A DNA stretch of 24,441 nucleotides from a virus. Its lineage: Duplodnaviria; Caudoviricetes. The stretch lies in IMG/VR virus record IMGVR_UViG_3300017751_000222, positions 1-24,441 of that record, one strand, 5' to 3'. Below, one piece after another: positions 2,918 through 20,850 of the stretch; the stretch's first letter is position 1, and each line of letters opens with the position of its first letter. Made by a program: the position numbers and the translations under genes. The notes beneath the pieces were generated by a model. It had not been told where the DNA came from. It saw nothing but the letters and a program-made list of their open reading frames with translations, and made no database searches.

Positions 2918-2932
2918 AAACTAAAAATTTAG

Positions 2933-2942: not shown

Positions 2943-2963
2943 TAAAAATAAAAAGAAAATAAA

Positions 2964-3452: not shown

Positions 3453-3478
3453 AATTTCTTTTAAATATTTTTAAAAAT

Positions 3479-3505
3479 AGCTTGGCTTCGGTCAAGCTTT
3501 TTTTT
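3479..3505 (+). terminator. Intrinsic terminator after the tube gene
   Basis: Hairpin AGCTTGGC-TTCG-GTCAAGCT (8 bp with one G-U, cUUCGg tetraloop) followed by a T-run. Confidence 0.9.
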
Positions 3506-3512
3506 ATATTAT

Positions 3513-3526
3513 ATATGTATAATTGA
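3513..3526 (+). promoter_or_regulatory. Putative late promoter (class I variant ATATGTATAATTGA)
   Basis: One-mismatch copy of ATATTTATAATTGA at 24181-24194. Both lie immediately downstream of a terminator. Confidence 0.5.
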
Positions 3527-3554
3527 TAATTAAGTTATAATAAATAAAATTTAT

Positions 3555-4361
3555 ATGAACCAAACAAATAATACTCCGCAACCTTCTACACCTGTAGAAA
3601 AACCTCAAGCGGCAGTTTCTAAACCAAAATTTAAATTTCCAACTGAAATAGTAGATTTACCTTCTAAAGGTTTAATTTACCCTAAAGACAATCCTTTATC
3701 ATCAGGTAAAGTGGAAATGAAGTATATGACAGCTAAAGAAGAGGATATTATAACTAATCAATCTTTCATCCAAAAAGGAACAGTAATAGATAAACTTTTA
3801 GAAGCATTAGTAGTAAGTGAAGGGGTAGATGTTGAAGATCTTATTGTAGGTGATAAAAATGCTTTATTAGTAGCGTCTAGAGTATTAGGATATGGTTCAA
3901 TTTATAAATTTACATATGGTGGTGAAGATTATGAAGTTGATTTAGCTAATTTAGAAAATAAAAAGTTTGATGAATCTTTATTCACCCCAGGTGAAAATAA
4001 ATTTTCATTTCAAACTCCTCATGGAGAAAATTTAATTGAATTTCAATTAATGACTGATAAAATTGAAAAGAAAGTATCAGCAGAATTGAGAGGATTAAAA
4101 AAGATCAGTAAAGGTGTAAGTCCTGAAATGTCAACTAGATTAAAACATATGATATTATCAGTAGACGGAAATCCAGAAAAAAAAGATATTAGAGAATTCG
4201 TAGATAATTTTTTCCTAGCACGAGATGCAAAAGCTCTTAGAGATTATGTTGTCAAAGTCCAACCCGATGTTGATTTCTCATTTGAACGAGAATTATCAAA
4301 TGGTGAATTAGAAGAAATTGACATTCCAATAGGTGCCAACTTTTTTTTCCCTGACGCCTAA
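3555..4361 (+). CDS. Tail/baseplate hub assembly chaperone (T4 gp26-like)
   Basis: Located between tube and tape measure. P.EIVDLPSKG..YP, KYMTAKEEDI, L.VGDKNALL.ASR.LGYG motifs. C-terminus IPIGANFFFPDA. Confidence 0.7.
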   Translation: MNQTNNTPQPSTPVEKPQAAVSKPKFKFPTEIVDLPSKGLIYPKDNPLSSGKVEMKYMTAKEEDIITNQSFIQKGTVIDKLLEALVVSEGVDVEDLIVGDKNALLVASRVLGYGSIYKFTYGGEDYEVDLANLENKKFDESLFTPGENKFSFQTPHGENLIEFQLMTDKIEKKVSAELRGLKKISKGVSPEMSTRLKHMILSVDGNPEKKDIREFVDNFFLARDAKALRDYVVKVQPDVDFSFERELSNGELEEIDIPIGANFFFPDA

Positions 4362-4695
4362 TCAAGCTATAGAATATAGACATAATTTATTTACACAAAT
4401 CCACGAAATAGTATTTCATGGACAAGGAGGATATGATTGGCATACTGTATATGGTATGCCTATGTGGTTAAGAAATTTTACTTATAAAAAAATAGTAGAT
4501 CACTATGAAGAAAAAAATAAACAAAATAGTGGAACTTCTTCAAATGATTTAGAAAAAGGAAGAGATATTCTTAAACAAGCTCAAAGAAATGATCCTTCTA
4601 ATGCAAATCAAAATAAATACACTGATAAATTTAAAAAAGCATCCCCAAAAATAAACGTCCCAGACTTCGTTACATCAAAAGCTAAAAAAGTTTAA
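4333..4695 (+). CDS. Second tail assembly chaperone (gp51-like / GT-type extension), probably expressed by frameshift from the upstream gene
   Basis: QIHEIVFHGQGGYDW..VY.MP.WLR.F motif resembles chaperone C-terminal extensions. The only upstream start is a weak GTG inside the previous gene. The overlap contains a T8 run. Confidence 0.65.
   Translation: MPTFFSLTPNQAIEYRHNLFTQIHEIVFHGQGGYDWHTVYGMPMWLRNFTYKKIVDHYEEKNKQNSGTSSNDLEKGRDILKQAQRNDPSNANQNKYTDKFKKASPKINVPDFVTSKAKKV
4341..4349 (+). other. Putative programmed frameshift/slippage site (TTT TTT TTC)
   Basis: T8 run in the 29-nt overlap. The downstream ORF is in the +1 (equivalent to -2) frame. Same genomic position as lambda G/GT and P2 E/E' slippery sites. 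Confidence 0.55.
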
Positions 4696-4702
4696 ATTAC
4701 TA

Positions 4703-4712
4703 ATATTTATAA
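4703..4712 (+). promoter_or_regulatory. Putative late promoter (class I motif ATATTTATAA)
   Basis: Within TAATATTTATAACAAAA (4701-4717), which is identical to 7798-7814. Ends 13 nt before the tape measure ATG. Confidence 0.62.
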
Positions 4713-4725
4713 CAAAATAGCTTAA

Positions 4726-7700
4726 ATGGCATTGGATCCTAAAATAATAGCAAAACTTAAAAAAGATTTAGCTGAGATAAATAAACTCTATAAACAGTTA
4801 AATATGGAGCCGTTATCTATAGAGATTGAAACGGCCGGTGTAGATGATATACTACTTGTTAAGCAATATTTACGAGAAGCAAAAGAACTTACAGAGGATT
4901 TAAATGAAGGATTTGGGGGAATGGCCGAATCTATAAAGAATATTGTTCGAGAATGGAAATCAGGTTTTGCAGATCCTACAAAAGAAGCAACCAAATCATT
5001 TACTAAATTAAAGGGATTAGCTGAAAAATTTTCGGATGACGCTACAGGTTTAGCTGAAATGAAAGGTAAAGAAGTTGCAGCTAATAAAAAATTAATTGCA
5101 CTTGAAGTTAAAAGATTAACTCTTTTAAAGGATGAATTAAGTAAAAAAGAAGTCCTTTCAACTGCTGAAGAAACAATATTAGCAAATTTAAATTCTGAAT
5201 ATGAAGTCCAAAAAGAACTTCTTAGTCTAGCAGAAGAAAGAGTAAAAAAAGAAAAAAAGATTCAAAAATCAATGGGTTTAACTGGTGCAGCAGTTAAATC
5301 AATATCTGGTGCTTTAGGTAAAATTGGAATGTCAAGTAGTTTTTTTGAGGGCATTGAAGGTAATATGAGAGAAACAGCAAAATCAGGAGGAAAATTTGCT
5401 GTAGCCATGACAGGATTAAAAGGAATTGTAAGTGGTATAGGTGAAGCTATAACAGATCCACTTGTTGTTTTTACAATGATTGTAAAATCTGTTAAATTTT
5501 TAGTAGGAATATTTGATCATGTTTTAAAATTAACAAACAAAATAGGTCAATCTGTTGGAGTAGCAGGATATGAAGCTAAAAATCTAAAAGCACAAATGCA
5601 TGCAGCTGGTGACTTATCAGGTGATATGTTTTATAATACTGAAGAAATGGCTGGGGCTTATGATAAGCTTAATAAAGCCGCTGGAATGAATTTAAAATTT
5701 AATGCTGAAAATGCTCAAACTTTTCAAGATTTAACTCTTTATATGGGGGTAAGTGAAGAAGCAGCAGCACAATTATTTAAAATATCAGCTCAAACTGGAA
5801 AATCATTTAATGAAATGTATGACCAAGTTAGAGATATTACTCAATCTTTAAATGAAAGTTCTGGTTATTCTATTTCAACACAAGATGCTATTGAAGCTAT
5901 AGGACAATCTAGTGGAACAGTTAGATTTAATATAAAAGGAGGAACAGAAGGTTTAGTTAAAGCTGCCCACACAGCTAATAGATTAGGTTTAAGTATGAAT
6001 GAAATAGCAGCAGCAGCCGCTACCCATTTAGATTTTGAAAGTTCAATTGCAAAAGAAATAGAAGCAGAAATGTTTTTACAAAAAGATCTAAACCTAGACA
6101 AATTAAGATACGCAGCTTTAACTGGAAATACAGCTATGGCCGCCGAAGAAGAAGCAAGATTAATTAAAGAAAATTATAAATCTTTAAAAGGTAATGTATT
6201 AGCCCAACAAGCATTTGCAGATGCAACTGGAATATCAATGGATAGTCTTGGAACTGCTTTAAGTAAACAAGAAGAATTAGAGGGTTTAAGTGGAAAAGCT
6301 TTAAAAGCTAAATTAGCAGAACAAAAGGCACAAAAAGAAATGGGACAGGATGCTCAAGCTTTTGACAGAACTATGGCTAACACATTGTTACAAATAAAAG
6401 CAATGTTAGAACCTTTAGCTAAAGTTGTTGGTCCTATGATTTTAGGTATGGCAAAAGCAATAGGTCCTATATTAAAGAAAATAGGTGATTTTGCAAAATC
6501 GGATATTGGTAAAGGATTTTTAAAAATAGCAGGGGTTGGTTTAGGGACAGCTTTAGCAGTTAAAGGATTTAACAAGTTAAAAGCTAGACTAACAGGTGTA
6601 AAAACTGGTGACAGTAATAATACTTACACTATGGATGGTAGACTAAGAGTATCAGGAGATGGTGGTAGTGGTAGTGGTATGGATATGTTAAAAGGAGGAA
6701 TGAAAGGTAATATCTTTAAATATTTAGGTAAAAAAGGAGGATTATCAAGAACTCTTAATAGAGGCCTTATTAGAATGTTTGGTAAAACTAAATTTACTAA
6801 ATTATTATCTACTAGAGTTTTGGGCCCAATGAGTACAGCTGCAAAGGGTATTACAAAAGAATCAAGTATAATAGCAAAAGCTATTAATTTTGTTCCATCA
6901 AAAATTAACCAAGGGTTAGGTAAAGTAGTATCATCTTCTGGATCTAATTTAGAAAAGAATTTTGGTACTAACAATATGTCCAAAATAGCAAAACAAGGTT
7001 CATCTGGAAATGTAAAAGCTTCTAAAATGGCTAGCAAATTTTCATCACCAACAACAACAAAAGCAACAACAAAAGCAGCAGCTAAAGGAGGTAATATTTT
7101 TAGTAGAGGATTTTCTGCACTTAAAGGGGTAGCTAGTAAGGGAATGGGCATGGTAAAAAGTGCAGGTTCTGCTATAAGTAAACAAGCCAGTAAATTAAGT
7201 CCAATGAAAGCTCTTAAAAAAGCTTTTAAATCTCCTTTAGCAAAAGGATTTGGAAAAGTATTTGGACCTATTATGGCTGCTGTAGAAGGAATAGGAAATG
7301 TTAGTTCATCTATATCAAATGCTAAAGCAGCAAAAATGGCTGGAGAAAATATTGATTTAGGGGCATTAGGTAAAGAAATAGTACAAGGAGCAGCATATCC
7401 AATAGCTAACTTAGCAACAAACTTAATACCAGGAGTTGGTACTGCAATTTCACTTACTGATGGTATTTTAAGTGCTTTTAATTTATCTCCAATAAAATGG
7501 TTAACTGATAATTTAATAGATTTAATACCAAATGATGCTTTTACAGGATTAGGTAAATTTGCTGTAGGAGATGATAAACCAGAATCAGGAGAAGTAACAA
7601 AATTAGCAACTGGAGGTATTGTAACTGGAGCTACAAATGCTATAGTTGGAGAAGCAGGACCAGAGGCAGTTATTCCATTAAGAGAATTTTATGCTAAATT

Positions 7701-7797
7701 TGATGAGCTAATAAGTGCTGTAAATAAGGGTGGAAGTGTCTACTTGGATGGAAATAAAGTAGGATATTCACTAGCATTGCAATCTTCCAAAATGTAG
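4726..7797 (+). CDS. Tail tape measure protein
   Basis: 1023 aa, helical and rich in A/K/G/L/M, with hydrophobic segments. Follows the chaperone pair. C-terminal LATGGIVTGAT.AIVGEAGPEAVIPL and VYLDG.KVG motifs typical of tape measure proteins. Confidence 0.9.
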   Translation: MALDPKIIAKLKKDLAEINKLYKQLNMEPLSIEIETAGVDDILLVKQYLREAKELTEDLNEGFGGMAESIKNIVREWKSGFADPTKEATKSFTKLKGLAEKFSDDATGLAEMKGKEVAANKKLIALEVKRLTLLKDELSKKEVLSTAEETILANLNSEYEVQKELLSLAEERVKKEKKIQKSMGLTGAAVKSISGALGKIGMSSSFFEGIEGNMRETAKSGGKFAVAMTGLKGIVSGIGEAITDPLVVFTMIVKSVKFLVGIFDHVLKLTNKIGQSVGVAGYEAKNLKAQMHAAGDLSGDMFYNTEEMAGAYDKLNKAAGMNLKFNAENAQTFQDLTLYMGVSEEAAAQLFKISAQTGKSFNEMYDQVRDITQSLNESSGYSISTQDAIEAIGQSSGTVRFNIKGGTEGLVKAAHTANRLGLSMNEIAAAAATHLDFESSIAKEIEAEMFLQKDLNLDKLRYAALTGNTAMAAEEEARLIKENYKSLKGNVLAQQAFADATGISMDSLGTALSKQEELEGLSGKALKAKLAEQKAQKEMGQDAQAFDRTMANTLLQIKAMLEPLAKVVGPMILGMAKAIGPILKKIGDFAKSDIGKGFLKIAGVGLGTALAVKGFNKLKARLTGVKTGDSNNTYTMDGRLRVSGDGGSGSGMDMLKGGMKGNIFKYLGKKGGLSRTLNRGLIRMFGKTKFTKLLSTRVLGPMSTAAKGITKESSIIAKAINFVPSKINQGLGKVVSSSGSNLEKNFGTNNMSKIAKQGSSGNVKASKMASKFSSPTTTKATTKAAAKGGNIFSRGFSALKGVASKGMGMVKSAGSAISKQASKLSPMKALKKAFKSPLAKGFGKVFGPIMAAVEGIGNVSSSISNAKAAKMAGENIDLGALGKEIVQGAAYPIANLATNLIPGVGTAISLTDGILSAFNLSPIKWLTDNLIDLIPNDAFTGLGKFAVGDDKPESGEVTKLATGGIVTGATNAIVGEAGPEAVIPLREFYAKFDELISAVNKGGSVYLDGNKVGYSLALQSSKM

Positions 7798-7799
7798 TA

Positions 7800-7809
7800 A
7801 TATTTATAA
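7800..7809 (+). promoter_or_regulatory. Putative late promoter (class I motif ATATTTATAA)
   Basis: 17-nt identity with 4701-4717. Ends 24 nt before the ATG at 7834. Confidence 0.62.
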
Positions 7810-7833
7810 CAAAACCAATTAAAACAAATAATT

Positions 7834-8130
7834 ATGGCAGAATCAATTTTAAAAATGTTTGATGCAGACGGTTCACGTTTAGGTGTACCTGTATCACCAG
7901 CTGATGGAACTATTAATGATGATATTAGTGTTCAAGGTATTTCAAAACTACATGACCAATATTCAAATATTGGAGATCCGAACCTAACATCACCAGCATA
8001 CAATAATATGGGTGCAGCAGCTATGGGGTATACGAATCCTAGCCCATCAGCATTAGGTCAAAGAACACAACTTTACCAAGAACCATCATCAAGATATAAA
8101 AATAACGCACCTGAAGGAAGGTCATTCTAA
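7834..8130 (+). CDS. Hypothetical protein, probably a virion component (98 aa)
   Basis: ORF in the tail cluster with its own class I motif and an A-rich leader. No recognisable domain. Confidence 0.7.
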   Translation: MAESILKMFDADGSRLGVPVSPADGTINDDISVQGISKLHDQYSNIGDPNLTSPAYNNMGAAAMGYTNPSPSALGQRTQLYQEPSSRYKNNAPEGRSF

Positions 8131-8140
8131 ATATTAGTAA

Positions 8141-10543
8141 ATGCCTTTAATTACTTCTACTACAGCTCTCAACAAACTGAAGTGGGGTTACGATAGATTT
8201 AATGCTGGTACATCCGATGGCAGTAACCAACCTTATATCAGACGTGATATCCCAGGGGTTAATGTTGATGATCCAAATCCTACACTATTTAATGATGGTG
8301 AAGATCTTCCTGCAAAAACAGGAATTGATTTTTTACTTAGAAATGGATTTAGAGCACCTGCAGATGCTTTACGAGACGTTAGTAGATTGTTTAAAATGTT
8401 TACTGATTTAAAAACGCCTAATGGTCTTTTATTTACGGCAGCACAAAATATATTATCTCGTACAGCAGTAAAAACAGAGGCTTCTTATGGAGTAGGTTAT
8501 GGGAGTACTAGAGAACCTAATTTTATAACAGGTGAAGGTGGAGGAGCATTAAATGAAGGTATTTATACTCCTTTAAGTACATTAGCCCAAGCAGGAGTAG
8601 GATTTACAGGTACACATTTAAATTTAATGGGATTAGATCCTACTGACCCTATGTCGGGGATTATAGAAGGTGGATTATTTCCTGGAGCAGGTTTAAATAC
8701 TTATTTTTCAACAATAAAAGCAAAAAATTCTGCTGCTACATTTTCAACAAAAACAGAAACATATACTGATAAAATTCCAAATCCATTATATCCTATATTT
8801 AATAATTTACCTTTAATATTAGGAAGTGAAGGACAAAACAACCCAGTAGAACCTGCATATTTAGATGTAGAAAAAGAAAGAATAGTATCTAATGATCAAA
8901 GTGATTTTGATAATAGATTAACAAATCTTTTAGATGTTAAACAAAATGTAAAAAATAATGATGCAAATATTATATCATACACAGGGGGACCAGGATCTAT
9001 TTTAGGGATAGGAAGTACAAATATTAAATTTGCGGATCAAAGAACAGGAGTAAATAATCTTTTATTTGTAAATGACCCTGGGTATTTTTTAGGGAGTAGT
9101 GGTAAAGATCATTATAATTTAAACCCTCAAACAAAAGACTATATAAGTAAATTAGGAGCATCTATATATGCCCAAAAAACATTTAGAGCTGAAGAAGATA
9201 GAGAAGAAATTATTACATATAATACAAACGAAATTATTGAAAATGAAAATAATTTTCAATCAACCATAAAAAATGCTAGTTTATCAACATTAGGATTTTT
9301 CTCAGCAAGACCTGATATCACACCAGATAATTACGGTGTATTTCAACGACCTTCTCCAGCTATAACTAGTAGAATCAAAGCAAATATCTTTTTTGTTGGA
9401 GCAACACAAGAATTTGCAGTAGCATTTCAAGAACAGGCCCCAGCATTAACTGAAGGTCTTAATTTAGGGGCAGATGGAGGAATTTATTTATTTGATAATA
9501 ATGTTTATAAAGATAATTTAGTTAGCGTAGGTAAAGATGAAGGAGGTAAACAATGGGAACAAAATACTTGGACTTTTACTCAAGCACAAATGGAAGATCA
9601 AGCATTATATAGAATTAACCCAGCAGTACAAGATTTTAGAAAAACAATAATTAATGCTTATGAATTAGAACAATCAAGTGTTTTATCATTAGCACCAGAT
9701 TATGTATCTAAATCAGCAAATAGAAGAGTAAATAGAGGGGATCCTGGAAAATCTAACACTTCTAACGGAAGTAAAAATGTATTTAATTATGGTTTACCTG
9801 CGACTCAAATGCAAGCATTAGACAAAATTACAGCCATGCCCATGTATGAAAGTGCTGGTCCTAATACATCTTTAGCTATTAACGACTTTTGTAAATTTAG
9901 AATAGCAGCTATAAATAATGAACCAGATAGTAATGGAAGTGCAGTTTATATGCATTTTAGAGCATTTATTGATTCATTTAGTGATAGCTATAATGCAGAA
10001 TGGTCACCTGTAAAGTATGCAGGTAGAGGAGAAAATTTATATAATTATGGAGGGTTTGGTAGAAGTATTAATATGGCTTTTACTTGTTTTGCTCAATCAA
10101 AACCCGAATTAATTCCTATGTATAAAAAATTAAATTATTTAGCTTCAACTTTAGCACCTGATTATACTAATGCTGGTTTTATGAGGGGTAATTTAGTAAG
10201 ATTAACTATGGGTGGTTATTTATATGAACAGCCTGGGTTTATAACATCTTTAACTTATGACATCCCTACAGAAACACCTTGGGAGGTAGCTATTAATGCT
10301 GAAGGAGGAGGAGATAGTAGTGTTAAAGAATTACCCCATATGATTAAAGTATCATCTTTACAATTTACTCCAATCCATAATTTCTTACCTCAAAAACCAA
10401 ATGTAGCAAATAATCCGGATGAAAGATATATAGCATTATCAAATGCTTTTAATTCAAGAGGAAACTATGCAGATTTATATCCTGAATTAGCTGCAGATGG
10501 TGATGGTGATAATAATAGTACAAATAATATTTTAGGTGAATAG
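8141..10543 (+). CDS. Baseplate/tail tube initiator-like protein (gp48/gp54-like C-terminal domain)
   Basis: 800 aa. C-terminal FRAFIDSFSDSYNAEW..VKYAGRGE..Y.Y.GF.RSI.MAF and LVRLTMGGYLYEQPGFITSLTY pattern is tube-fold-like. Lies between tape measure and the LysM gene. Confidence 0.65.
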   Translation: MPLITSTTALNKLKWGYDRFNAGTSDGSNQPYIRRDIPGVNVDDPNPTLFNDGEDLPAKTGIDFLLRNGFRAPADALRDVSRLFKMFTDLKTPNGLLFTAAQNILSRTAVKTEASYGVGYGSTREPNFITGEGGGALNEGIYTPLSTLAQAGVGFTGTHLNLMGLDPTDPMSGIIEGGLFPGAGLNTYFSTIKAKNSAATFSTKTETYTDKIPNPLYPIFNNLPLILGSEGQNNPVEPAYLDVEKERIVSNDQSDFDNRLTNLLDVKQNVKNNDANIISYTGGPGSILGIGSTNIKFADQRTGVNNLLFVNDPGYFLGSSGKDHYNLNPQTKDYISKLGASIYAQKTFRAEEDREEIITYNTNEIIENENNFQSTIKNASLSTLGFFSARPDITPDNYGVFQRPSPAITSRIKANIFFVGATQEFAVAFQEQAPALTEGLNLGADGGIYLFDNNVYKDNLVSVGKDEGGKQWEQNTWTFTQAQMEDQALYRINPAVQDFRKTIINAYELEQSSVLSLAPDYVSKSANRRVNRGDPGKSNTSNGSKNVFNYGLPATQMQALDKITAMPMYESAGPNTSLAINDFCKFRIAAINNEPDSNGSAVYMHFRAFIDSFSDSYNAEWSPVKYAGRGENLYNYGGFGRSINMAFTCFAQSKPELIPMYKKLNYLASTLAPDYTNAGFMRGNLVRLTMGGYLYEQPGFITSLTYDIPTETPWEVAINAEGGGDSSVKELPHMIKVSSLQFTPIHNFLPQKPNVANNPDERYIALSNAFNSRGNYADLYPELAADGDGDNNSTNNILGE

Positions 10544-10859
10544 ATATAATAAAATACAAAAAATTAGAAATACAAATGAATTTGTAGGGACTATAGGTGA
10601 TTTATATTATAGAACAGTATATTATCCTGAGTTTGGCCCATCAGAAACAGATATTTATGTTGAAACTGAATTTGGGGATAGATTAGATCGTTTAGCATTT
10701 CAATTTTATGGTGATGTTACTTTATATTGGATTATAGCTATAGCTAACCCAAATGTTATAAGTTTTGGAGCATTATTCCCTCCTATAGGATCACAATTAA
10801 GAATACCTACAAATATAAGTGGAATAATAGATAGTTATAATAGATTAAATGAGTTATAA
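10536..10859 (+). CDS. LysM-domain baseplate protein (P2 gpX / T4 gp53-like), GTG start
   Basis: GDRLDRLAFQFYGDVTLYWIIAIANP...G.QLRIP is the characteristic baseplate LysM motif. Confidence 0.88.
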   Translation: MNRYNKIQKIRNTNEFVGTIGDLYYRTVYYPEFGPSETDIYVETEFGDRLDRLAFQFYGDVTLYWIIAIANPNVISFGALFPPIGSQLRIPTNISGIIDSYNRLNEL

Positions 10860-10861
10860 AA

Positions 10862-13800
10862 ATGAATATACTAGGAAAACCTTTTTCGCCATGGGTTACT
10901 AACCAAATAAACACCAGACAAGCGTCTTTAGGTAATAGTACTAATTTAACAAATAGTAACTTATTATATCAAAATGCAAAGGCTCCTTGGATTAGATTAG
11001 CTAGCACAGTAGATATAAAGGCAATTGAAGGTAAAAATACTAATTTTACAAAACTTGCTAATTTTGGTATTTCTGATACTTTAATTCAAGGTGATACAGC
11101 AGCCAGAAATTTCATATTACAAGGAGGTACTTCTAAAATAATAGATAATGATGATAATGAAACAGGAGCATTAAACTCTGGGTTAAATTTAACTAATCAA
11201 CTTTATAATGGAGCTTATGGTTGGGGAGGTATAGAAGAAAGAGGATTTGTACCAATGCCTGGAATAATATCAGCTGATGTTAAATATTATAATAATGGAG
11301 CTTTATCAAAATCTACCATTAATATGAAATGCTTCTCAAGAAATCAATTAGCATTAATGGATGTTCTTTATATGAGACCTGGTTATAATCTTCTATTAGA
11401 ATTTGGATGGAGCCAATATTTAAACAATCAAGGAGAATTAATTCAAACAGATAATTTCTTTTCAGACCCTTTAAGTTTTATATTTAACCCTAATTCAGTT
11501 GCAAGTGATACCCCAACTCATTTTGATGTTTTAAATTTAATCCAAAATGAAAGAATTGCTAGTAATGGGAATTATGAAGGAGTATTTGGTAAAATAACTA
11601 ATTTTAATTGGTCTTTCAACTCAGATGGAAGTTATGATTGTAGAGTAGATTTAACAGGAATGGGAGATATGATGGAGTCTCTAAAAGTAAATATAAAATT
11701 ACCTTCTAAAAAAGATAATGATGTATCAAAAGAAAAAGAAGAACCTGCATCTGAAACAACAGTTCCTCCTATTGTAGCTAATAAAGATAAAACTACTTTA
11801 AATAAAGTTTTATTTCAACTTTATGAACAAAATATAAGTGTTGGAGAAGATACTTTTCAATCTTTAAATCTTAAATCTTTCCCAAATGTTAAAACAGAAA
11901 TTGATTCTGATGGAAAAGTAATAACAGAATTTAAAACAGAAGACATAACAATAAGTAATGGAATGTTAGCTTTAACAGGAACTACTACTGATATAGAAGG
12001 AAATTCATCTCCCCAAGTATATATAACATTTGGTTCTTTATTAGCTTATATCCAAAAATATTTACTTCTTTATAATAAAGAAGGTACTCCATTGTTTGCA
12101 TTTGATGTAAATTTTAATAATCTACCAATAGATGAAAATTATATAGTTTCAATCCCAGGACAATTTTCAGCAGATCCTTTATCATGTTTAATACCTTATA
12201 AAGGTCTTCCTGAAGGTATAGCTGATGATGCTAAGATAGTTGACACTAATGTTAATGATACTTTATTAAAAAATCAAAATACTTTTTTAACAGATAATGA
12301 ATATTTAGGAAGATTAACAGGAATTTATTTAAATATAAATAATATAGCAACAGTTTTAGATTCTTCACCAAGAGAAGAAGATGGAAGTTTATCATTACTT
12401 TCATTTTTAAATAATGTAATAACATCTTTCACTCAGGCTTTAGGGGGTATTAATATGATATCTATTAAAGTTGATGAAGTGACACAACAAATAAAATTCA
12501 TCGAAAATCAACCCCAAAGATTTACACAAGAAGAATCTAATGAAACTTATGCTAGATTTAATACATTTGGTGTAAAACCCAATGCTGAAGGTTCTTTTGT
12601 AAGAAATATAGTTATGGGAGGAGAATTAGGACCTAAATATGCTTCAATGATAGCTATTGGATCACAAATAAGTGGAAATAAATTATCAGCAAATGCCACA
12701 GGATTTTCTACATACAATTTAGGTTTAGAAGATAGAGTCATTCCACAAAAATTAAACCATGATTATGACGCTGGAACTGAAGCAGATGCTAATGCTGAAG
12801 TAGAACTAACTATAGGAGATATATGGAATAAACAAATTAATTATAAAGAAGGAGAATCAGATAAATCATTATTTGAAAGTATATATAATAGTAGACTTTT
12901 TATTACAGAAGATATTAATGCCCTAAAAGAATTAAATTATAATTTTATAAATCAAATTAGTGGAAAGTTAGTAGAAACAAAGCAACTCCAATCACCTTCA
13001 TTTCTACCTTTTAATTTAAGCATTGATATAGATGGTTTATCTGGAATAAAACTATTTGAAAGATTTTTAATGGATGATTCGATACTTCCCCCTTCATATG
13101 GAGAAGGAAATGTAGATTTACTTGTTAAATCTTTAAACCATACAATTGATTCTTCCCAATGGATAACATCAATAGATACTCAAGCAGCACCTTCTCAAAA
13201 ATTAGATCCTGTATCAAAACCTAATAGATTATTATCAACTTCAACAAAACAAAGTAATGCTAGTGGAGGTGGGGGAAGTCCTGTAGGAGAATTAGGAGAA
13301 ATTGCTTCATTAACTTCTGGTTATCCTATGGCTAAAATTTTCTATGATGGTCCTACATCTAAAACCCAAATTGTGATTCATCATACTGCAGGTAGACAAA
13401 ATATAGCAAATACTATTAAATCATGGAGTAAAAGAACAGATCATGTAGCTACTCATTATATTACTAATAATGAAGGTGAAAAAGAACAACTATTTGCTGA
13501 CACAGCTTGGGCAAATCATTTAGGTGTTAAAAGTTCAACTTTTAAAGCTTTAGGAGTTACTTATCAAAATTTAAACAAAACTAGTTTAGGGATTGAAATG
13601 CAAGCTTTTGGAGGGTTAAAGGAAAGAGATGGAAAATATTACACCTATGTAAACTCAGAAATCCCATCATCAAATGTAGCACAACCTGTAGATAAAAATG
13701 GAAATCCTACAACTTATAAAGGTTATTCTTTTTATGAAAAATATTCGTCTTCAAACATTGCTAGAGTTAAAGAAATAGTAACAGGATGGATGGGTAAATA

Positions 13801-13984
13801 TGGAATTCCTTTTGTATATGACTATGATGTTTTATTTCCTAGTACTTCAACAGTTTCATTAGCAGCATTTGAGGGTACATCAGGAGTTTATACTCACAAT
13901 TCATTTAGAACTGGAAAATCTGATGTATTCCCACAAGCAGAATTAATTCAAATGTTTAAATCAATAGCAACTAAAATAGTATAA
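10862..13984 (+). CDS. Baseplate hub-like protein with C-terminal N-acetylmuramoyl-L-alanine amidase (Amidase_2-like), a putative tail-associated lysin
   Basis: Follows the LysM gene. N-terminal PMPGI.S, LYMRPGYNLLLEFGW, GKITNFNWS. After an SGGGGS linker: QIVIHHTAG, VATHYI, WANHLG, N..SLGIEM, VYTHNSFRTGKSD (His/His/Asp Zn-ligand pattern). Confidence 0.78.
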   Translation: MNILGKPFSPWVTNQINTRQASLGNSTNLTNSNLLYQNAKAPWIRLASTVDIKAIEGKNTNFTKLANFGISDTLIQGDTAARNFILQGGTSKIIDNDDNETGALNSGLNLTNQLYNGAYGWGGIEERGFVPMPGIISADVKYYNNGALSKSTINMKCFSRNQLALMDVLYMRPGYNLLLEFGWSQYLNNQGELIQTDNFFSDPLSFIFNPNSVASDTPTHFDVLNLIQNERIASNGNYEGVFGKITNFNWSFNSDGSYDCRVDLTGMGDMMESLKVNIKLPSKKDNDVSKEKEEPASETTVPPIVANKDKTTLNKVLFQLYEQNISVGEDTFQSLNLKSFPNVKTEIDSDGKVITEFKTEDITISNGMLALTGTTTDIEGNSSPQVYITFGSLLAYIQKYLLLYNKEGTPLFAFDVNFNNLPIDENYIVSIPGQFSADPLSCLIPYKGLPEGIADDAKIVDTNVNDTLLKNQNTFLTDNEYLGRLTGIYLNINNIATVLDSSPREEDGSLSLLSFLNNVITSFTQALGGINMISIKVDEVTQQIKFIENQPQRFTQEESNETYARFNTFGVKPNAEGSFVRNIVMGGELGPKYASMIAIGSQISGNKLSANATGFSTYNLGLEDRVIPQKLNHDYDAGTEADANAEVELTIGDIWNKQINYKEGESDKSLFESIYNSRLFITEDINALKELNYNFINQISGKLVETKQLQSPSFLPFNLSIDIDGLSGIKLFERFLMDDSILPPSYGEGNVDLLVKSLNHTIDSSQWITSIDTQAAPSQKLDPVSKPNRLLSTSTKQSNASGGGGSPVGELGEIASLTSGYPMAKIFYDGPTSKTQIVIHHTAGRQNIANTIKSWSKRTDHVATHYITNNEGEKEQLFADTAWANHLGVKSSTFKALGVTYQNLNKTSLGIEMQAFGGLKERDGKYYTYVNSEIPSSNVAQPVDKNGNPTTYKGYSFYEKYSSSNIARVKEIVTGWMGKYGIPFVYDYDVLFPSTSTVSLAAFEGTSGVYTHNSFRTGKSDVFPQAELIQMFKSIATKIV

Positions 13985-14664
13985 TGTATATTCCAAAAAA
14001 TAGAATAAAACCAAACCTTTACACCCCAGGGAATGAATTTTTAATTAAATCATCAGGTGAAAGCTACAGAGGATATTACCATAGCCTTTACACAGGAAAG
14101 TTTTATACAGGAAAAACACAAAATGCTTCTAATATTAGGGAAATTATAAGATATGAAGTACCAGAATTAGAAGGCACACCTAATTTACCACAAAATTTAG
14201 AAAATACAAATGTTATTGCTTTATTTTTAAATGATCCTGATCCTTTAGTAAATGAAGATAAATGGAATCAAAAAGATATTGTAACATTTCTTGAATTAAA
14301 CGGAAAAAGTACAATTGATGATGACCCTAAAAATACACCTTATCAAAGTTACCCTAAACCAACAGAAGATGATTACAAATTAGGAACATTTACAAGATAT
14401 TTTGCGGTTAAGGTAAATGAAAATACATTTTTAGAATTAAATGAAGAAGTATATAAAAAACTTACCAAACAGGATACAAATTGGACTTGGGAATTATGGA
14501 CTTGTTTTAAAATACAATGGACATTAATTGGTGGTATAAAAGAAATTGGCAGTGCTAATAGAAATCAAGTTTTAATAACTGAACAAAGGTTAAAAAGAAA
14601 AGGATTACAAGCTTTTTTAAGAGGTGATTATGTTAAATTTTCTAAAAGACCTAAATTTAACTAG
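13984..14664 (+). CDS. Hypothetical protein, probably baseplate/virion associated (226 aa)
   Basis: Start overlaps the hub stop (TAATG). LYT.G.EF, Y.GYYH, PKPT..DY..G.FTRYF motifs. Last gene of the tail cluster. Confidence 0.7.
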   Translation: MYIPKNRIKPNLYTPGNEFLIKSSGESYRGYYHSLYTGKFYTGKTQNASNIREIIRYEVPELEGTPNLPQNLENTNVIALFLNDPDPLVNEDKWNQKDIVTFLELNGKSTIDDDPKNTPYQSYPKPTEDDYKLGTFTRYFAVKVNENTFLELNEEVYKKLTKQDTNWTWELWTCFKIQWTLIGGIKEIGSANRNQVLITEQRLKRKGLQAFLRGDYVKFSKRPKFN

Positions 14665-14690
14665 GAGTCCCTATTATAATTTTGTATATT
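14661..14690 (+). promoter_or_regulatory. Putative early/middle promoter (class II: CTAG-N20-TATATT)
   Basis: Shares GTATATT and spacing with the sites at 16415-16444 and 18398-18426. Resembles Bacteroidota -33 TTTG / -7 TAnnTTTG promoters. Confidence 0.45.
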
Positions 14691-14706: not shown

Positions 14707-15966
14707 ATGTTTTGGTTAGTTGAAGATAATAAACAATTAGAAATATTTAAGAATTATTGTAAAGGTGATGTTTTTATTGAAATAATACCTTATGATAATA
14801 GAGAGCACCCTACTCAAAATGAAATATGTGCTATTTATATTCGCCCGTTAAATTCAACTAAAGGTTATATTTTACCCACATCCCATAGTGAAACTTTAAA
14901 CATTGATTTATACGTTATAAAACGCGTATTAAACATGGTAGATAATATATATGTGCGTGATAAAAAAGAATTTTTACACTATTTAGTTTTCAAAAATCTT
15001 TTAGACACAACACTTAATGGTCCTACGTATATACCAGAATACACTAAAACTCATAACTATTTTTATAATCAATATCCTAATAAAAAAGACATAAATAGAA
15101 TAATACCTATTGTCAAACATTATGAATATTGTGAAACTATATTTAATGATTTAAAAGAAAAAATAAATGAACCAATCAATGACTTTTACAACAACAGAGC
15201 TACAGTGGTGTTCAACGCCTTGGAGCGAAGTGGAATACGAATTAATAGAGAAAAATTTGAATCGCACTTTCACCCTACCGATAGAGACATCACTTACACT
15301 CAATACAACTTTAAAACAACAACAACAAGACCATCTAACAAATTTGGAGGAGTAAATTATGCGGCACTTAATAAAGATAATGGATGTAGGGAAGCTTTTA
15401 TACCACATAATGATAAATTTATTGAGCTTGATATTGGTGCTTATCATCCTACTTTGCTTGGGTTGTTGGTTAATTATAATTTTGGTAATGAAGATATTCA
15501 CCAAGCATTTGCGGAAATGTATGGAGTGGATTATAAAAAAGCAAAAGAATTAACTTTTAAACAACTATACGGAGGAGTATTCGAACAATTCAAAGATCTG
15601 GAATTTTTTAAAAAAGTTCAAGTATATGTGGATGAGATGTGGGAAAAATTTAATCGAGAAGGTTATATTGAATGTCCTGTTTCAAAGTACATTTATAAAA
15701 AAGAAAAATTAGATGAAATGAAGCCTCAAAAACTTTTAAATTATCTACTACAAAACTTGGAGACAGCCATGAATATTCGTATATTATGGGATATATTTAA
15801 ATTATTAAAAGGACGCAAAACTAAATTAGTATTATATACTTATGATTCATTTTTGTTTGATTTTAGTGAGGAAGATAAAAATTTAATTAAAGAAATTAAA
15901 GCTATATTTACAACATATAAGCTTAAAATAAAAGAAAGTTATGGAAACACCTACAATTTTAAATAA
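14707..15966 (+). CDS. polA: Atypical short family-A DNA polymerase-like protein
   Basis: LERSGIRIN (thumb base), TTTTRPSN (motif 2), ELDIGAYHP (motif A, D242), DIH, KAKELTFKQLYG (motif B), LLNYLLQ (motif 6), LYTYDSFLFD (motif C, D380). Confidence 0.85.
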   Translation: MFWLVEDNKQLEIFKNYCKGDVFIEIIPYDNREHPTQNEICAIYIRPLNSTKGYILPTSHSETLNIDLYVIKRVLNMVDNIYVRDKKEFLHYLVFKNLLDTTLNGPTYIPEYTKTHNYFYNQYPNKKDINRIIPIVKHYEYCETIFNDLKEKINEPINDFYNNRATVVFNALERSGIRINREKFESHFHPTDRDITYTQYNFKTTTTRPSNKFGGVNYAALNKDNGCREAFIPHNDKFIELDIGAYHPTLLGLLVNYNFGNEDIHQAFAEMYGVDYKKAKELTFKQLYGGVFEQFKDLEFFKKVQVYVDEMWEKFNREGYIECPVSKYIYKKEKLDEMKPQKLLNYLLQNLETAMNIRILWDIFKLLKGRKTKLVLYTYDSFLFDFSEEDKNLIKEIKAIFTTYKLKIKESYGNTYNFK

Positions 15967-16414
15967 TTCAGTCAATATGTATACCGTAGACGACTTCTCT
16001 GAATTCGCTACATTAAATATAAAAGATTTGAATAATAAATTATTTTGTACTTTTACTACGTTAGAGGAATTAGACCCATTAATAAAGGGTTTAACTTCTA
16101 CTTATAACATAATGTATAATAAAATATTTGTTTTACATGTTAAAAGTAATGACGAGTATGTATGTACTTATAATATAGATCAAGCTAATTTAAGTTCTCT
16201 CCCAGAGAATACAATTTTAGTACATAGAAAAAAAGAATCAAATACCTTATATACTATTAATGCTTTAAATGAGTTAATTAAAAGATTAAATGGTGGGGTT
16301 GTTGACACAAAGTTTCCGATTACATGGGAACATTATAGAAATACTATATTACTAACTCAAAGAGATGAGTTAAAAGAATTAAAGACAAAAATTTATAAAA
16401 TTCTTGAAGTATAG
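15941..16414 (+). CDS. Hypothetical protein overlapping the polA end (possible polymerase partner)
   Basis: 157 aa, 26-nt overlap with polA, alternative start at 15977. Ordered alpha/beta-looking sequence (KLFCTF, TILVHRKKESNTLYTINALN). Confidence 0.75.
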   Translation: METPTILNNSVNMYTVDDFSEFATLNIKDLNNKLFCTFTTLEELDPLIKGLTSTYNIMYNKIFVLHVKSNDEYVCTYNIDQANLSSLPENTILVHRKKESNTLYTINALNELIKRLNGGVVDTKFPITWEHYRNTILLTQRDELKELKTKIYKILEV

Positions 16415-16489: not shown

Positions 16490-17308
16490 ATGGATTTAAA
16501 TGCAATCAAAAATCGCTTGGAACAAATGAACAAGCAAAGCTCTGCTAATAGTGGAGGCGGTAAATCACTATTTTGGAAACCATCAGTTGGTAAAGAAGTA
16601 GTTAGAGTAGTACCCAACAAATATAATAAACAATTCCCATTTACAGAAATGTTATTTTACTATGGCATTGGTCAAAGAGTAATGGCATCTCCTCAAAACT
16701 GGTCTGAAAAAGATCCAATTCAAGAATTCACTAAACAACTGCGTAATAGTGGTGATAAGGAAAATTGGAGGTTAGCTAAAAAATTAGATGCTAAAACACG
16801 TATTTTTGCTCCTATTATTGTAAGAGGACAAGAAGACGAAGGGGTAAAATTGTGGCAATTTGGTAAAGAAGTTTATCAAGATTTCTTAAATATGGCTTCA
16901 GATGAAGAAATTGGTGATTATACTGATATTGTAGGAGGTAGAGATATTAAGTTAACTACAGTAGGACCTGAAGTAACAGGAACTCCTTATAATAAAACGT
17001 CGGTTGGTCCTTCTCTTAAAACTTCACCTTTATCATCGGATGAAAATTTAGCAGAGAATCTTCTAAATAATCAACCAAACCCACTTGAAGTATTTAAAAG
17101 ATTTTCATTTGATGAAGTTAAATCAGCACTACAAGATTATTTATCTGATGGTGAAACAGAGGTTGTATCAACTACTACTTCTTCTTCACCTGCTGCAGCT
17201 CCAACAAATAATTATTCATTGGATACTAACAAGTCAAAATCTAAAGCTGATCAATTTGATGACTTATTTTCAGATGATAAAAATAAATCAGACGATTTAC
17301 CGTTTTAA
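16490..17308 (+). CDS. ssb: Single-stranded DNA-binding protein (T4 gp32-like)
   Basis: FWKP..GK..VRVVP, PF.E..FYY, DPI.EF, GVKLWQFGK.VY, D.TD...GRD pattern. Acidic tail ending FDDLF...DDLPF. Confidence 0.85.
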   Translation: MDLNAIKNRLEQMNKQSSANSGGGKSLFWKPSVGKEVVRVVPNKYNKQFPFTEMLFYYGIGQRVMASPQNWSEKDPIQEFTKQLRNSGDKENWRLAKKLDAKTRIFAPIIVRGQEDEGVKLWQFGKEVYQDFLNMASDEEIGDYTDIVGGRDIKLTTVGPEVTGTPYNKTSVGPSLKTSPLSSDENLAENLLNNQPNPLEVFKRFSFDEVKSALQDYLSDGETEVVSTTTSSSPAAAPTNNYSLDTNKSKSKADQFDDLFSDDKNKSDDLPF

Positions 17309-17318
17309 TAAATAGTAT

Positions 17319-18395
17319 ATGGCGAGAAAGAAAAAAACACTAGGGGAAGCAGTCTCTAAAGAAATACAATCAAATTTTAATTTAGATGCTTTTAAAACTA
17401 AAAAAGGTTTAAAATCTAATATTAAATTTAAAGATCAAGACTGGATTCCAATTTCGTCAGCATTCCAAGAGGTAACTTCAATTCCGGGTATTCCTATGGG
17501 GCACATTGTGCTCCTTAGGGGTCACTCAGATACTGGAAAAACAACAGCACTTTTGGAAGCAGCTGTATCAGCTCAAAAAAGAAACATTCTACCAGTTTTT
17601 ATTATTACTGAGATGAAATGGTCTTGGGACCATGCTAAAATGATGGGGTTAGAGGTTAATGAGATTAAAGATGAAGAAACAGGTGAAGTTGAAAATTATG
17701 AAGGTAATTTTATTTATGTAGATAGAGAAACTATTAATTCTATTGAAGATGTAGCTGGGTTTATTTTAGATTTAATTGATGAACAAAAGAAAGGTAATTT
17801 ACCATATGATCTATTATTTCTATGGGATTCTATTGGATCTGTACCTTGTGAAATGTCTATCAAATCTAATAAAAATAATAATGAATGGAATGCCGGCGCA
17901 ATGTCAACTCAATTTGGTAATAGTGTAAACCAAAAAATAACACTATCAAGAAAAGAATCATCACCATTTACTAATACGTTGGTTTGTATTAATAAAGTAT
18001 GGACATTAAAAGCTGAGTCTCCAATGGGACAACCCAAATTAATGAATAAAGGAGGTTATGCTATGTGGTTTGATTCAACATTTGTAGTTACATTTGGTAA
18101 TGTTATGTCAGCTGGAACTTCAAAAATAAAAGCTATTAAAGACGGTAAACAAGTTGAATTTGCTAAAAGGGTAAACATTCAAATTGATAAAAACCATATT
18201 AATGGTGTTACTACTAGAGGTAAAATTGTTATGACCCCCCATGGATTTATATTAGATAATGATCGAGAACTTAAAAATTATAAAGATGCTCGAAAAGAAG
18301 ATTGGGCAGCTATTTTAGGTGGTGGAGATTTTAGAGTAGTTGAAGAAGGTCAAGCATTTACAGATATAACATCTTTTGAAGACGAGCCACAATAA
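17319..18395 (+). CDS. recA: RecA/UvsX-like recombinase
   Basis: GIPMGHIVLLRG, Walker A GHSDTGKT, FIITE (catalytic Glu), Walker B LFLWDSIGS, CINKVW, KGG.AM.F, KNHI. Confidence 0.88.
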   Translation: MARKKKTLGEAVSKEIQSNFNLDAFKTKKGLKSNIKFKDQDWIPISSAFQEVTSIPGIPMGHIVLLRGHSDTGKTTALLEAAVSAQKRNILPVFIITEMKWSWDHAKMMGLEVNEIKDEETGEVENYEGNFIYVDRETINSIEDVAGFILDLIDEQKKGNLPYDLLFLWDSIGSVPCEMSIKSNKNNNEWNAGAMSTQFGNSVNQKITLSRKESSPFTNTLVCINKVWTLKAESPMGQPKLMNKGGYAMWFDSTFVVTFGNVMSAGTSKIKAIKDGKQVEFAKRVNIQIDKNHINGVTTRGKIVMTPHGFILDNDRELKNYKDARKEDWAAILGGGDFRVVEEGQAFTDITSFEDEPQ

Positions 18396-18445: not shown

Positions 18446-19480
18446 ATGAAACAGAAAGAATTATTTAAACTCCTGGATAACATTCAGGAGCAAGGGGAAG
18501 GTACTGTAATAAATAGTGAAAGAGTTCTATTAATAGATGGGTTAAATCTATTTTTTAGGAATTTTGCAATGATGAATATGGTTAATCCTGATGGGGTTCA
18601 TGTAGGGGGTTTAGGTGGTTTTTTCCGTTCACTAGGTGCTTTAATTCGTCAAATAGATCCAACACAAGTATATGTTGTATTTGATGGGGCTGGATCAGCT
18701 AACAATAGAAAAAATATAATCCCAGAGTATAAATCAGGTAGAGATTTACAGCGTATTACTAATTGGGATGCTTTTGATGATTTAGATGATGAACATGATG
18801 CTAAAGTAGATCAAATGGTAAGAATAATTCAGTATTTAAAAACATTACCTGTTAAAACTTGTAGTATTGATAAAGTAGAAGCTGATGATATAATTGCATA
18901 TTTTAGTAAAATCATACCCCAAAAACCAGAAGACAAAGTGTTTATAGTATCTTCTGATAAAGACTTTATACAATTAGTAAATGAAAATGTTATTGTATAT
19001 CGTCCTATGGAAAAAGAATATTATACAGAACAAACAGTAATTGACAAATATAAAATGTCTCCTAAAAACTTTATTTTACATAAAACTTTATTAGGAGATA
19101 ATTCTGATAAAATTAAAGGTGTTAAGGGATTAGGTGAAAAGGGGTTGTATAAAAAATTTCCTGAGTTAATGGAACGTGATATGACTCTAGAAGATATATA
19201 TTCTATATGCGAATCTAAATTTAAAGATCATGTAGTGTATGCTAGAGTAATTCAAAATATAGATGAACTAGAAAAAAATTATAAGGTTATGGATTTAGAT
19301 AATCCTATGATTAGTAAAGATGATGAAAAATATTTAAATGAAGTTGTCAATTCAGAAATACCTCCATATATTCCAGAGCAATTTGTAGCATTTTACAACC
19401 AAGATAAACTTGGGGGTATGATACGAAATGTTGAATTTTGGGTAAAAGAAATTTTTGAAAAATTAGTTATAAAAAAATAA
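18446..19480 (+). CDS. 5'-3' exonuclease / flap endonuclease (PolI N-terminal domain, T4 RNase H, T5 D15 family)
   Basis: LLIDGLNLFFR, VVFDG, EYKSGR, EADDIIA, VSSDKDFIQL and the H3TH motif LLGDNSDKIKGVKGLGEK. Confidence 0.94.
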   Translation: MKQKELFKLLDNIQEQGEGTVINSERVLLIDGLNLFFRNFAMMNMVNPDGVHVGGLGGFFRSLGALIRQIDPTQVYVVFDGAGSANNRKNIIPEYKSGRDLQRITNWDAFDDLDDEHDAKVDQMVRIIQYLKTLPVKTCSIDKVEADDIIAYFSKIIPQKPEDKVFIVSSDKDFIQLVNENVIVYRPMEKEYYTEQTVIDKYKMSPKNFILHKTLLGDNSDKIKGVKGLGEKGLYKKFPELMERDMTLEDIYSICESKFKDHVVYARVIQNIDELEKNYKVMDLDNPMISKDDEKYLNEVVNSEIPPYIPEQFVAFYNQDKLGGMIRNVEFWVKEIFEKLVIKK

Positions 19481-19485
19481 GTTAC

Positions 19486-20850
19486 ATGACATTAGTAAAT
19501 TTAAACCATTATGGTATTCACTTTCAAATTAAAGCAATTTCCTCATTGCTTACACATAAGCAATTTTTAATTAGTATACATGATGTGTTAAGTGAAGAAT
19601 ATTTTGATAACCAAGCACATAAATGGATTATTAAAGAAATATTAAGGTATTATGACAAATACCATACTACTCCTTCAATGGATATTTTAAAAGTTGAGGT
19701 TAAAAAAATAGATAATGAAGTATTACAACTATCCGTTAAAGAACAACTTAGAGAAGCATATCAAGCTTCTGAAGAAGATTTAGAATATGTACAAGAAGAA
19801 TTTTCAACATTTTGTAAAAATCAACAATTAAAAAAAGCATTACTTAGTAGTGTAGATTTACTTAAAGCTGGGGATTTTGATGGTATTAAACATTTAGTAG
19901 AATCTGCTTTAAAAGCAGGTAATGATAAAAATGTAGGACATGAATATAATAAAGACATTGAAACCAGATTTAGAGAAGATGCTAGAACTACTATTAGTAC
20001 ACCTTGGCCTAAAATTAATGAATTACTACAAGGAGGATTAGGAAATGGAGATTTTGGCCTTATATTTGGTAACCCAGGAGGGGGTAAATCTTGGTCGTTA
20101 GTAGCATTAGGGGGTTATGCTGTAAAAATGGGTTATAATGTAATTCATTATACTTTAGAATTAGGAGAAGCTTATGTAGGGAGAAGGTATGATGCTTTTT
20201 TCTCACAAATCCCAGTTGATAGAATTCTTCAAAACAGAGAAAAAATTGAAGATATAATTCCCCAATTACCTGGAGAATTAATTATTAAAGAATTTCCAAC
20301 AGGAAGAGCAACTATGTCTACTATAGAATCACATATATCTAAAGTAGGAGACTCAGGGGTTAAACCAGATTTAGTAATAATAGATTATGTTGATCTTCTT
20401 GGTACAAAGAAAAAAACAGCTGATCGTAAGGGTGAAATTGATGATATTTATACAAGCACTAAGGGATTAGCTAGAGAATTAGATATACCAATTTGGTCAG
20501 TTTCTCAAGTTAATAGAGCTGGTGCAAAAGACGATATTGTAGAAGGAGATAAGGCAGCAGGATCATATGATAAAATTATGATTACTGATGTATGTATTTC
20601 CCTTTCAAGAAAAAAAGCAGACAAAGTAAATGGCACAGGAAGATTTCACATTATGAAGAATAGATATGGTATTGATGGTTTAACTTTTGGTGTAAAAGCT
20701 GATACTTCAACAGGACATTTTGAAGTAATAGATTACAACCCTGAAGATTATGAAAAAGAACCAACTCAACCTATAAACGGTTTTAATAATGATCTTGATA
20801 CTTTTGATAAACAGTCATTAAAAAATAAATTTTTCGAATTAAATACATAA
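19486..20850 (+). CDS. dnaB: Replicative DNA helicase (DnaB / T4 gp41-like, SF4)
   Basis: Walker A GNPGGGKS, HYTLEL, Walker B LVIIDYVDLL, WSVSQVNR, KNRYG. Confidence 0.93.
   Translation: MTLVNLNHYGIHFQIKAISSLLTHKQFLISIHDVLSEEYFDNQAHKWIIKEILRYYDKYHTTPSMDILKVEVKKIDNEVLQLSVKEQLREAYQASEEDLEYVQEEFSTFCKNQQLKKALLSSVDLLKAGDFDGIKHLVESALKAGNDKNVGHEYNKDIETRFREDARTTISTPWPKINELLQGGLGNGDFGLIFGNPGGGKSWSLVALGGYAVKMGYNVIHYTLELGEAYVGRRYDAFFSQIPVDRILQNREKIEDIIPQLPGELIIKEFPTGRATMSTIESHISKVGDSGVKPDLVIIDYVDLLGTKKKTADRKGEIDDIYTSTKGLARELDIPIWSVSQVNRAGAKDDIVEGDKAAGSYDKIMITDVCISLSRKKADKVNGTGRFHIMKNRYGIDGLTFGVKADTSTGHFEVIDYNPEDYEKEPTQPINGFNNDLDTFDKQSLKNKFFELNT

Follow-up and report, generated by a model that had tools for sequence, protein, structure and literature searches.

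A divPolA1 family polymerase with a truncated thumb and a histidine at the steric-gate position, possibly a short-tract DNA polymerase of large myophages

What is left for a family-A DNA polymerase to do once it has lost most of its thumb and the glutamate that guards its nucleotide pocket? The question is raised by a 419-aa open reading frame (ORF) in IMG/VR virus record IMGVR_UViG_3300017751_000222 (Duplodnaviria; Caudoviricetes), positions 1 to 24,441 of which were analysed and are called the window here. The window (27-34% GC all along) is part of a large myophage, with genes for tail sheath, tube, baseplate hub, wedge and amidase at 320-14664, followed by the polymerase gene and a replication block in the order given below. 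The ORF lies where it was originally predicted to lie, with all the residues that had been named, and an identical copy of the gene is carried by an 8-kb IMG/VR contig. Two ORFs 3' of the helicase gene read as probable ribonucleotide reductase subunits, judging from their own sequence and the gene order in Flavobacterium phage vB_FspM_immuto (immuto hereafter). Upstream, 10862-13984 encodes a probable baseplate hub protein of 1040 aa that ends in an N-acetylmuramoyl-L-alanine amidase domain; this C-terminal enzyme seems variable among relatives, immuto gp033 being annotated as a carboxypeptidase. The features needed below are as follows.

14684..14690, plus strand: GTATATT box 5' of divPolA1, a putative non-late promoter element; boxes of the same type precede the SSB gene (16438) and the 5'-3' exonuclease gene (18420)
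14707..15966, plus strand: divPolA1, 419-aa family-A polymerase (ORF, profile alignment and model), with an exonuclease-fold domain (~1-155), a thumb stump (~159-200), and palm and shortened fingers to 419
15941..16414, plus strand: partner gene, longest ORF 157 aa
15975..15982, plus strand: ATAT[TG]TAT box past the polymerase stop, a putative late promoter of the partner gene
16490..17308, plus strand: gp32-like single-stranded DNA-binding protein (SSB)
17319..18395, plus strand: RecA/UvsX-like recombinase
18446..19480, plus strand: 5'-3' exonuclease, Pol I N-terminal/flap-endonuclease type
19486..20850, plus strand: DnaB-like replicative helicase

The original prediction saw in this gene a candidate for an undescribed system, but it belongs to divPolA1, a family described by computation in 2024 and named by Yutin et al. 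(Virol J 2024;21:200, PMC11348598; preprint 10.1101/2024.04.26.591309). These authors report it from 14 phages of 155-190 kb, with the palm intact, the thumb truncated and the exonuclease inactivated, always alongside a regular PolA, PolB or PolC, and consider it probably replication-related (PMC11348598). The window protein is 38% identical over 412 columns (E 1e-95) to the type member, immuto gp001 (YP_010114413), which nests among its homologues in a tree. The two proteins have the same palm residues, truncated thumb and exonuclease fold predicted to be dead for want of its acids, their genes are followed by the same SSB-RecA-exonuclease-DnaB block, and there is no family-level difference from divPolA1. 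The window gene is therefore one more member, real, conserved and odd, of a family whose main features, found again here, had already been described. That family is far larger than the 14 phages reported, with 1171 50%-clusters at E <= 0.001, the weak end of which may include ordinary PolAs. Among named phages, tblastn returned six records, that is, four of immuto (38%), an uncultured 484-kb phage (LR756508.1:240919-242250), which falls outside the 155-190 kb Flavobacterium-linked set first reported, and Microcystis phage Mel-JY01 (PP395634.1:50766-51599). A literature search on the name divPolA1 returned the study of Yutin et al. with no follow-up work, and no biochemical study of the family was found. 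In the main text of that study the word 'steric' does not occur, and no discussion of the histidine gate, the fingertip deletion or the partner gene described below was found in it (PMC11348598). What is new here is the fingertip deletion, together with the conserved internal start of the partner (16028) and its own late-promoter-like box.

Single-sequence searches are nearly blind to this family: with divPolA1 alone, Pfam gave DNA_pol_A at E 0.0095, below the cut-off, PHROGs gave no match and phmmer against the PDB gave chance matches only, so that a profile of 145 homologues was needed. Its best solved relative is Klenow (E 7e-11, HMMER alignment), and the alignment equates D242 with D705, Y246 with I709, H247 with E710, Y276 with R754, K280/F284/Y288 with K758/F762/Y766 and Y379-D380-S381 with H881-D882-E883, which bears out the register first obtained by hand. 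Conservation was scored in 136 sequences: the window protein and the 150 top-ranking representatives of 50% clusters, less 15 that were shorter than 395 aa. D242 and R208 are invariant; D380, K280, N217, Q349 and E352 are each found in 135 sequences, Y379 in 133, Y288 in 132 and F284 in 126, and the catalytic set is thus as intact as had been claimed. Retained equivalents include R668, N675, R690, N845, Q849, D705, D882, K758, F762 and Y766, which in Klenow bind DNA or substrate (PMC10520511).

Around this catalytic core, several canonical residues differ. At the steric gate, position 247 is His in 133 sequences, Gln in three and Glu in none, and its neighbour 246 is Tyr or Phe in 130 of 136. 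Position 381 is Ser in 99, Ala in 34 and Gly in three, the conserved feature of motif C being the loss of Glu rather than the presence of 'DSF'. Position 276 is Tyr in 86, Ile in 17 and Arg in 13 of the 136 (the alignment is loose at that column); loss of the motif-B Arg is common and Tyr is not invariant. Conservation, proposed as a check in the original prediction, holds for the histidine and for the tyrosine and aspartate of motif C, though not strictly for Ser381 or Tyr276, and random decay does not explain it. Six regular phage PolAs (five chosen by hand out of 40 rows spread over 743 records, and immuto gp199) all retain the motif-B Arg, and motif C reads HDS in three of them (two T5-like, one Bastille-like). 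The D-S motif, found in the HDSF of T7 RNA polymerase (RNAP), can therefore be rejected as RNA polymerase-specific.

A histidine gate has precedents in PolD, where H931 was tested and excludes ribonucleotides (PMC7708050), and in Pol III, where H760 was modelled (PMC8485763). Both folds are unrelated to family A, and the PolD case means that a changed gate alone does not imply tolerance of rNTPs. Four pocket positions are nevertheless unlike Klenow at once, which makes a changed substrate range possible: I709 to Tyr or Phe, E710 to His and H881 to Tyr, together with the frequent loss of R754, suggest a changed substrate rather than a slower Pol I. On the role of R754, a literature search turned up nothing useful. 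In helix Q, the nearly invariant E352 stands where Klenow has Ala and could partner His247. The gene is not decaying, since His247 is kept in such diverse homologues and its pairwise dN/dS to seven close loci is 0.15-0.22 (two of these give identical values), a mark of purifying selection.

An AlphaFold2 model of the protein (pLDDT 96.8) superposes on Klenow with Z 23.1 (408 of 419 residues, rmsd 3.4), residues 1-419 aligning to Klenow 329-927. Nine family-A DNA polymerase entries match it at Z 20.6-23.5, against 7.4-9.3 only for single-subunit (T7-type) RNAPs, and its N-terminal domain matches DEDD exonucleases where those enzymes have a promoter-binding domain. The RNAP-like motif C of the original prediction is present as YDS, but the likeness is weakened by this DNA-polymerase fold, by Ala or Gly at 381 in 37 of 136 sequences and by the HDS of T5-like and Bastille-like PolAs. 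The thumb is nearly absent, as had been proposed. Only 35 residues separate E173 from R208 (23-43 across the 136 aligned members), compared with 127 in Klenow (chain positions 218 and 345, HMMER alignment) and about 136-188 in three regular phage PolAs, and in the model a single 7-residue helix (181-187) stands between thumb base and motif 2. In Pol I, thumb truncation lowers processivity and fidelity while activity remains (10.1101/2022.12.02.518924). A second loss was missed by the original prediction: 14 residues are deleted after the motif-B YG (profile alignment to Klenow), which removes the O1/O2 fingertip including the F771 region that provides strand displacement in Klenow (PMC10520511). 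The last thumb helix is also short, with 11 residues from N217 to R228 in 128 of 136 sequences versus 15 in Klenow, but it was rejected as a diagnostic feature because ordinary phage PolAs have it too (12 in T5-like FFH1, 9 in LP-026).

In fold, the N-terminal domain resembles ExnV1 and RNase D (Z 10-12) and, more generally, DEDD exonucleases (Z 8-12). Its first strand has no conserved D-x-E, E25 being found in 40 and I27 in 107 of the 136 sequences; the register of motifs II and III is a manual reading, hhalign to two regular PolAs having stopped short of the domain. The exonuclease fold is thus retained and the site looks dead, its catalytic acids apparently replaced and proofreading predicted to be absent, much as the original prediction of a scaffold with no clear catalytic set had it. 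The domain has a conserved set of its own (H34 in 129, H60 in 134, an acid at 62 in 136, K87 in 129, N130 in 124 and P134 in 132 of 136), the residues of note being 34, 60, 62, 87, 130, 134 and 137-140.

Two kinds of promoter-like box punctuate the region. GTATA[TC][TA] occurs within 90 nt upstream of the polymerase gene in 40/82 close loci, of the SSB gene in 58/92 and of the exonuclease gene in 32/74, and never upstream of the partner (0/97), RecA (0/83) or DnaB (0/56) genes. ATAT[TG]TAT lies at 295, 2933, 3513, 4703, 7800 and 15975 on the plus strand of the window, 5' of structural genes (including those for sheath, tube, hub and tape measure) and of the partner gene; in immuto it precedes the same four genes plus terminase, portal and groES. 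This box is informative by position only, its ten matches in the window, all on the plus strand, comparing with 11.7 expected and so showing no over-representation overall. It is a candidate late promoter read by a gp55-like sigma factor, for which weak matches (E 2e-5 to 8e-3) were found in 4/4 near-complete relatives. Contigs of four RNA-labelled runs span the region and are uninformative on transcription, strand or starts.

The partner gene is likewise conserved, with dN/dS of 0.04-0.08 to seven close loci (two give identical values) and an invariant HRKK-x2-NT-x-Y motif. A conserved in-frame TTG at 16028 would give a 128-aa core. Four codons ahead of LFCTF, a conserved motif, 79 of 80 distinct close loci have ATG, GTG or TTG (TTG in 74), against a background of 159 TTG among 1488 Leu codons in the body of the gene; the same position has a start-type codon in 69/72 immuto-like loci, and a third clade has ATG at the same place in 27/46 and one codon earlier in 14/46. 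A TAT[TG]TAT box lies within 120 nt upstream in 76/80 close and 71/72 immuto-like loci, in 1/46 of the third clade and in 77/1135 random stretches. The upstream extension is open in frame in 72/72 close loci, a count in which ATG-only ORF calling favours open leaders, and it varies most at third positions. The pattern would fit two in-frame forms of the partner, one longer and produced together with the polymerase, the other of 128 aa and produced late. Two such forms would make an obligate two-subunit enzyme less likely.

The partner gene directly follows the polymerase gene in 77/77 close loci with room for it. Of 150 distant loci (at least 600 nt downstream; not dereplicated), 83 have it immediately next to the polymerase gene and 55 at a greater distance, making 138 with the partner adjacent or near, and in the other 12 it was not detected. 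In one clade (L197-L276), ~2 kb of variable genes stand between the two (e.g. L257:1829-3640 and L242:5168-5800), several of them starting with a short basic-hydrophobic leader ending in Glu, which we take to resemble protease-cleaved capsid-loading tags. Nine longer partner-containing proteins were found. Three of them include a partial polymerase, all singletons with truncated parts, and others join the partner to unrelated proteins; they were treated as assembly or gene-calling artefacts rather than fusions.

Comparisons with Pfam, PHROGs, the PDB and the Atlas gave no meaningful match to the partner. Its model (pLDDT 79; residues 1-29 below 50 and predicted disordered) is alpha/beta, and the best structural matches are ferredoxin/ACT/RRM-like, at Z <= 6.0 over residues ~25-99; the second half is barely covered, and no OB fold is among the matches listed. 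The only clear match is an uncharacterised family member in BFVD. The original suggestion that divPolA1 is one subunit of a split polymerase finds no support in such a model, which is without the long helical pair of a thumb and so does not represent a displaced one.

A further question is which other polymerase and primase such phages have, and here the answer for the window phage comes from relatives 54-83% identical in the divPolA1 protein. Five larger contigs with homologues this close encode PolB (5/5), with PolC and regular PolA in 0/5; the three nearest records, fragments of 8-25 kb, gave no PolB. Immuto has, besides divPolA1 as gp001 with the same block 3', a second PolA of 777 aa (gp199) and a DnaG primase (gp091). 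DnaG is also present in two near-complete PolB-bearing relatives and in a third genome with a regular PolA. A separate replicase and DnaG are thus found in 4/4 near-complete, non-chimeric relatives (immuto, G002, G003 and G009), and Toprim in 4 of 14 records, ten of which are only 26-63% complete. The separate polymerase, the missing thumb and the dead-looking exonuclease agree with the original view that this is not a standard replicase, while the remark that no primase is visible in the cluster loses weight, since DnaG is encoded elsewhere in these four relatives.

One relative that seemed to have no primase, G010 (178 kb), in fact encodes one of the T4 gp61 type and was set aside as probably chimeric: its first ~10 kb (C1:1-10400; L291, L247) is an Immutovirus-like hub-to-divPolA1 block and the rest is T4-like, with its own baseplate, gp43, clamp, loader and gp61 (IMG/VR completeness 99%). 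In two relatives the regular PolB was read out as adjacent ORFs of ~560 and ~310 aa with visible exonuclease and polymerase motifs; the break falls between motifs B and C, where the stop of one ORF overlaps the start of the next (L109:502-3113 in G004, L113:113-2193 in G002). In G002, PolB is followed by a 244-aa unannotated gene and then, by eye, by a small heat-shock-like protein; the 244-aa gene looked clamp-like, no match was found and no clamp is claimed.

The account that we favour, and to which we would give about an even chance, is that divPolA1 extends primers and fills gaps as a distributive short-tract DNA polymerase, working beside the main replicase; gap filling is likewise the likeliest of the options in the original prediction. 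We prefer it because the palm residues that hold the primer end and the nucleotide are kept, what would give grip, strand displacement and editing has been lost, and other enzymes already take care of priming and bulk synthesis. The enzyme would bind an existing primer end, add a few dNMPs and fall off, with synthesis halting on reaching a downstream strand for want of the strand-separating fingertip. Its substrates may be DnaG RNA primers or 3' ends delivered by the recombinase, which it would lengthen before hand-off, as well as the gaps that the 5'-3' exonuclease leaves behind. In this it would somewhat recall Pol alpha or the polymerase portion of Pol I, with His247 possibly serving as an alternative sugar gate. 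Its linkage to SSB, recombinase, 5'-3' exonuclease and helicase is fixed, and a fixed primer-handling step would let the main replicase be swapped among A, B and C while divPolA1 stays in the replication operon. Two points tell against a short-tract role and leave the need for another enzyme to be accounted for: in T4-type phages the main polymerase itself fills gaps, and immuto already has a proofreading PolA.

Several rival readings deserve weighing. Tentatively, and on the unlikely side, divPolA1 and its partner could be a dedicated chain starter, its His-gated pocket making or extending RNA or mixed RNA-DNA primers. A related and rather unlikely idea is that the pair is a primase-polymerase which, in the manner of staphylococcal CCPol-MP, initiates DNA chains de novo to fire origins or restart forks. 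The plan is alike, in that a truncated, exonuclease-less, short-thumb PolA is paired with a small, very conserved protein, with a helicase downstream (PMC7581432; 10.1101/2022.12.02.518924; see also PMC10201439 on such primases). The invariant basic HRKK motif of a partner kept at or near the polymerase also speaks for it, as does the short last thumb helix, a trait credited with leaving space for the initiating triphosphate (PMC7581432). That helix is, however, just as short in ordinary phage PolAs, CCPol keeps E710 (PMC7581432), and DnaG is present in all four near-complete, non-chimeric relatives; moreover, one clade separates polymerase and partner, and in two clades the partner has a late-type box and an internal start of its own, so that its expression may be separate from that of the polymerase.

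An enzyme that uses rNTPs to make RNA primers or short transcripts is improbable. It would account for the universal absence of E710, the Tyr or Phe at I709 and a motif C without its second acid, as in the HDSF of T7 RNAP, but the histidine is bulky where T7 RNAP has Gly. The fold is that of a DNA polymerase, in which an exonuclease scaffold is present and a promoter-binding domain is not, HDS occurs in half of the regular phage PolAs checked, DnaG already supplies RNA primers, and with a gp55-like sigma candidate, albeit weak, in 4/4 relatives, late transcription would need no such enzyme. In favour, removal of the gate Glu (E658A) lowers the sugar selectivity of Bst polymerase (PMC10520511). 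Slightly less credible still is a reading in which bulk replication falls to divPolA1, its thumb replaced by the partner or the helicase, and the regular polymerase is the accessory: divPolA1 is constant at the head of the replication operon, the regular enzyme is swapped and sits among chaperonin and nucleotide genes, and its role was called less obvious by Yutin et al. (PMC11348598), yet a genome of ~160 kb would then be copied without proofreading while the PolB of close relatives has intact exonuclease and polymerase motifs, and the alpha/beta partner is no substitute for a helical thumb. A non-catalytic scaffold or decaying gene, as the loss of thumb, fingertip, exonuclease acids and R754 might suggest, is very improbable, given that the two aspartates that bind metal and the Lys of motif B hardly vary among proteins 31-57% identical, with dN/dS of ~0.2 and at least 5403 homologous 90% clusters among 8000 candidates scored.

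Whichever reading holds, nature offers in divPolA1 a minimal family-A polymerase whose nucleotide pocket has been rebuilt. The family is abundant in aquatic phages, where it forms thousands of sequence clusters, and Flavobacterium sp. LMO8 with its phage immuto provides a cultured host-phage model. The questions that matter at family level are (i) whether His can act as a family-A sugar gate and (ii) why a second polymerase is kept while the main one is swapped. Should the chain-starter reading be true, divPolA1 would do for phages what Pol alpha does elsewhere, and the helicase-primase module would be uncoupled from a main replicase that can change freely among families A, B and C.

Among known systems, CCPol-MP of SCCmec and the related PolA-SSB pairs have the same general layout, a truncated, non-proofreading, short-thumb PolA with a small partner and a helicase further on. 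CCPol has lost most of its exonuclease domain and has Glu at the gate, whereas divPolA1 keeps the scaffold and has His; MP is predicted to be an OB fold, whereas the first half of the partner model is ferredoxin/RRM-like; and the relatives with divPolA1 also encode DnaG. T7-type RNAPs and TV-Pols share palm, fingers and the motif-C D-S with divPolA1, which differs in its exonuclease scaffold at the place of their promoter-binding domain and in being without the D5-type helicase linkage described for TV-Pols (PMC2579912). Klenow and Pol I share the overall fold and catalytic core, from which the window protein departs by ~90 missing thumb residues, 14 missing fingertip residues, exonuclease acids that are not conserved, the changes E710H, I709Y, R754Y, H881Y and E883S, and a 5'-3' exonuclease that, unlike in Pol I, is a separate gene in the same block.
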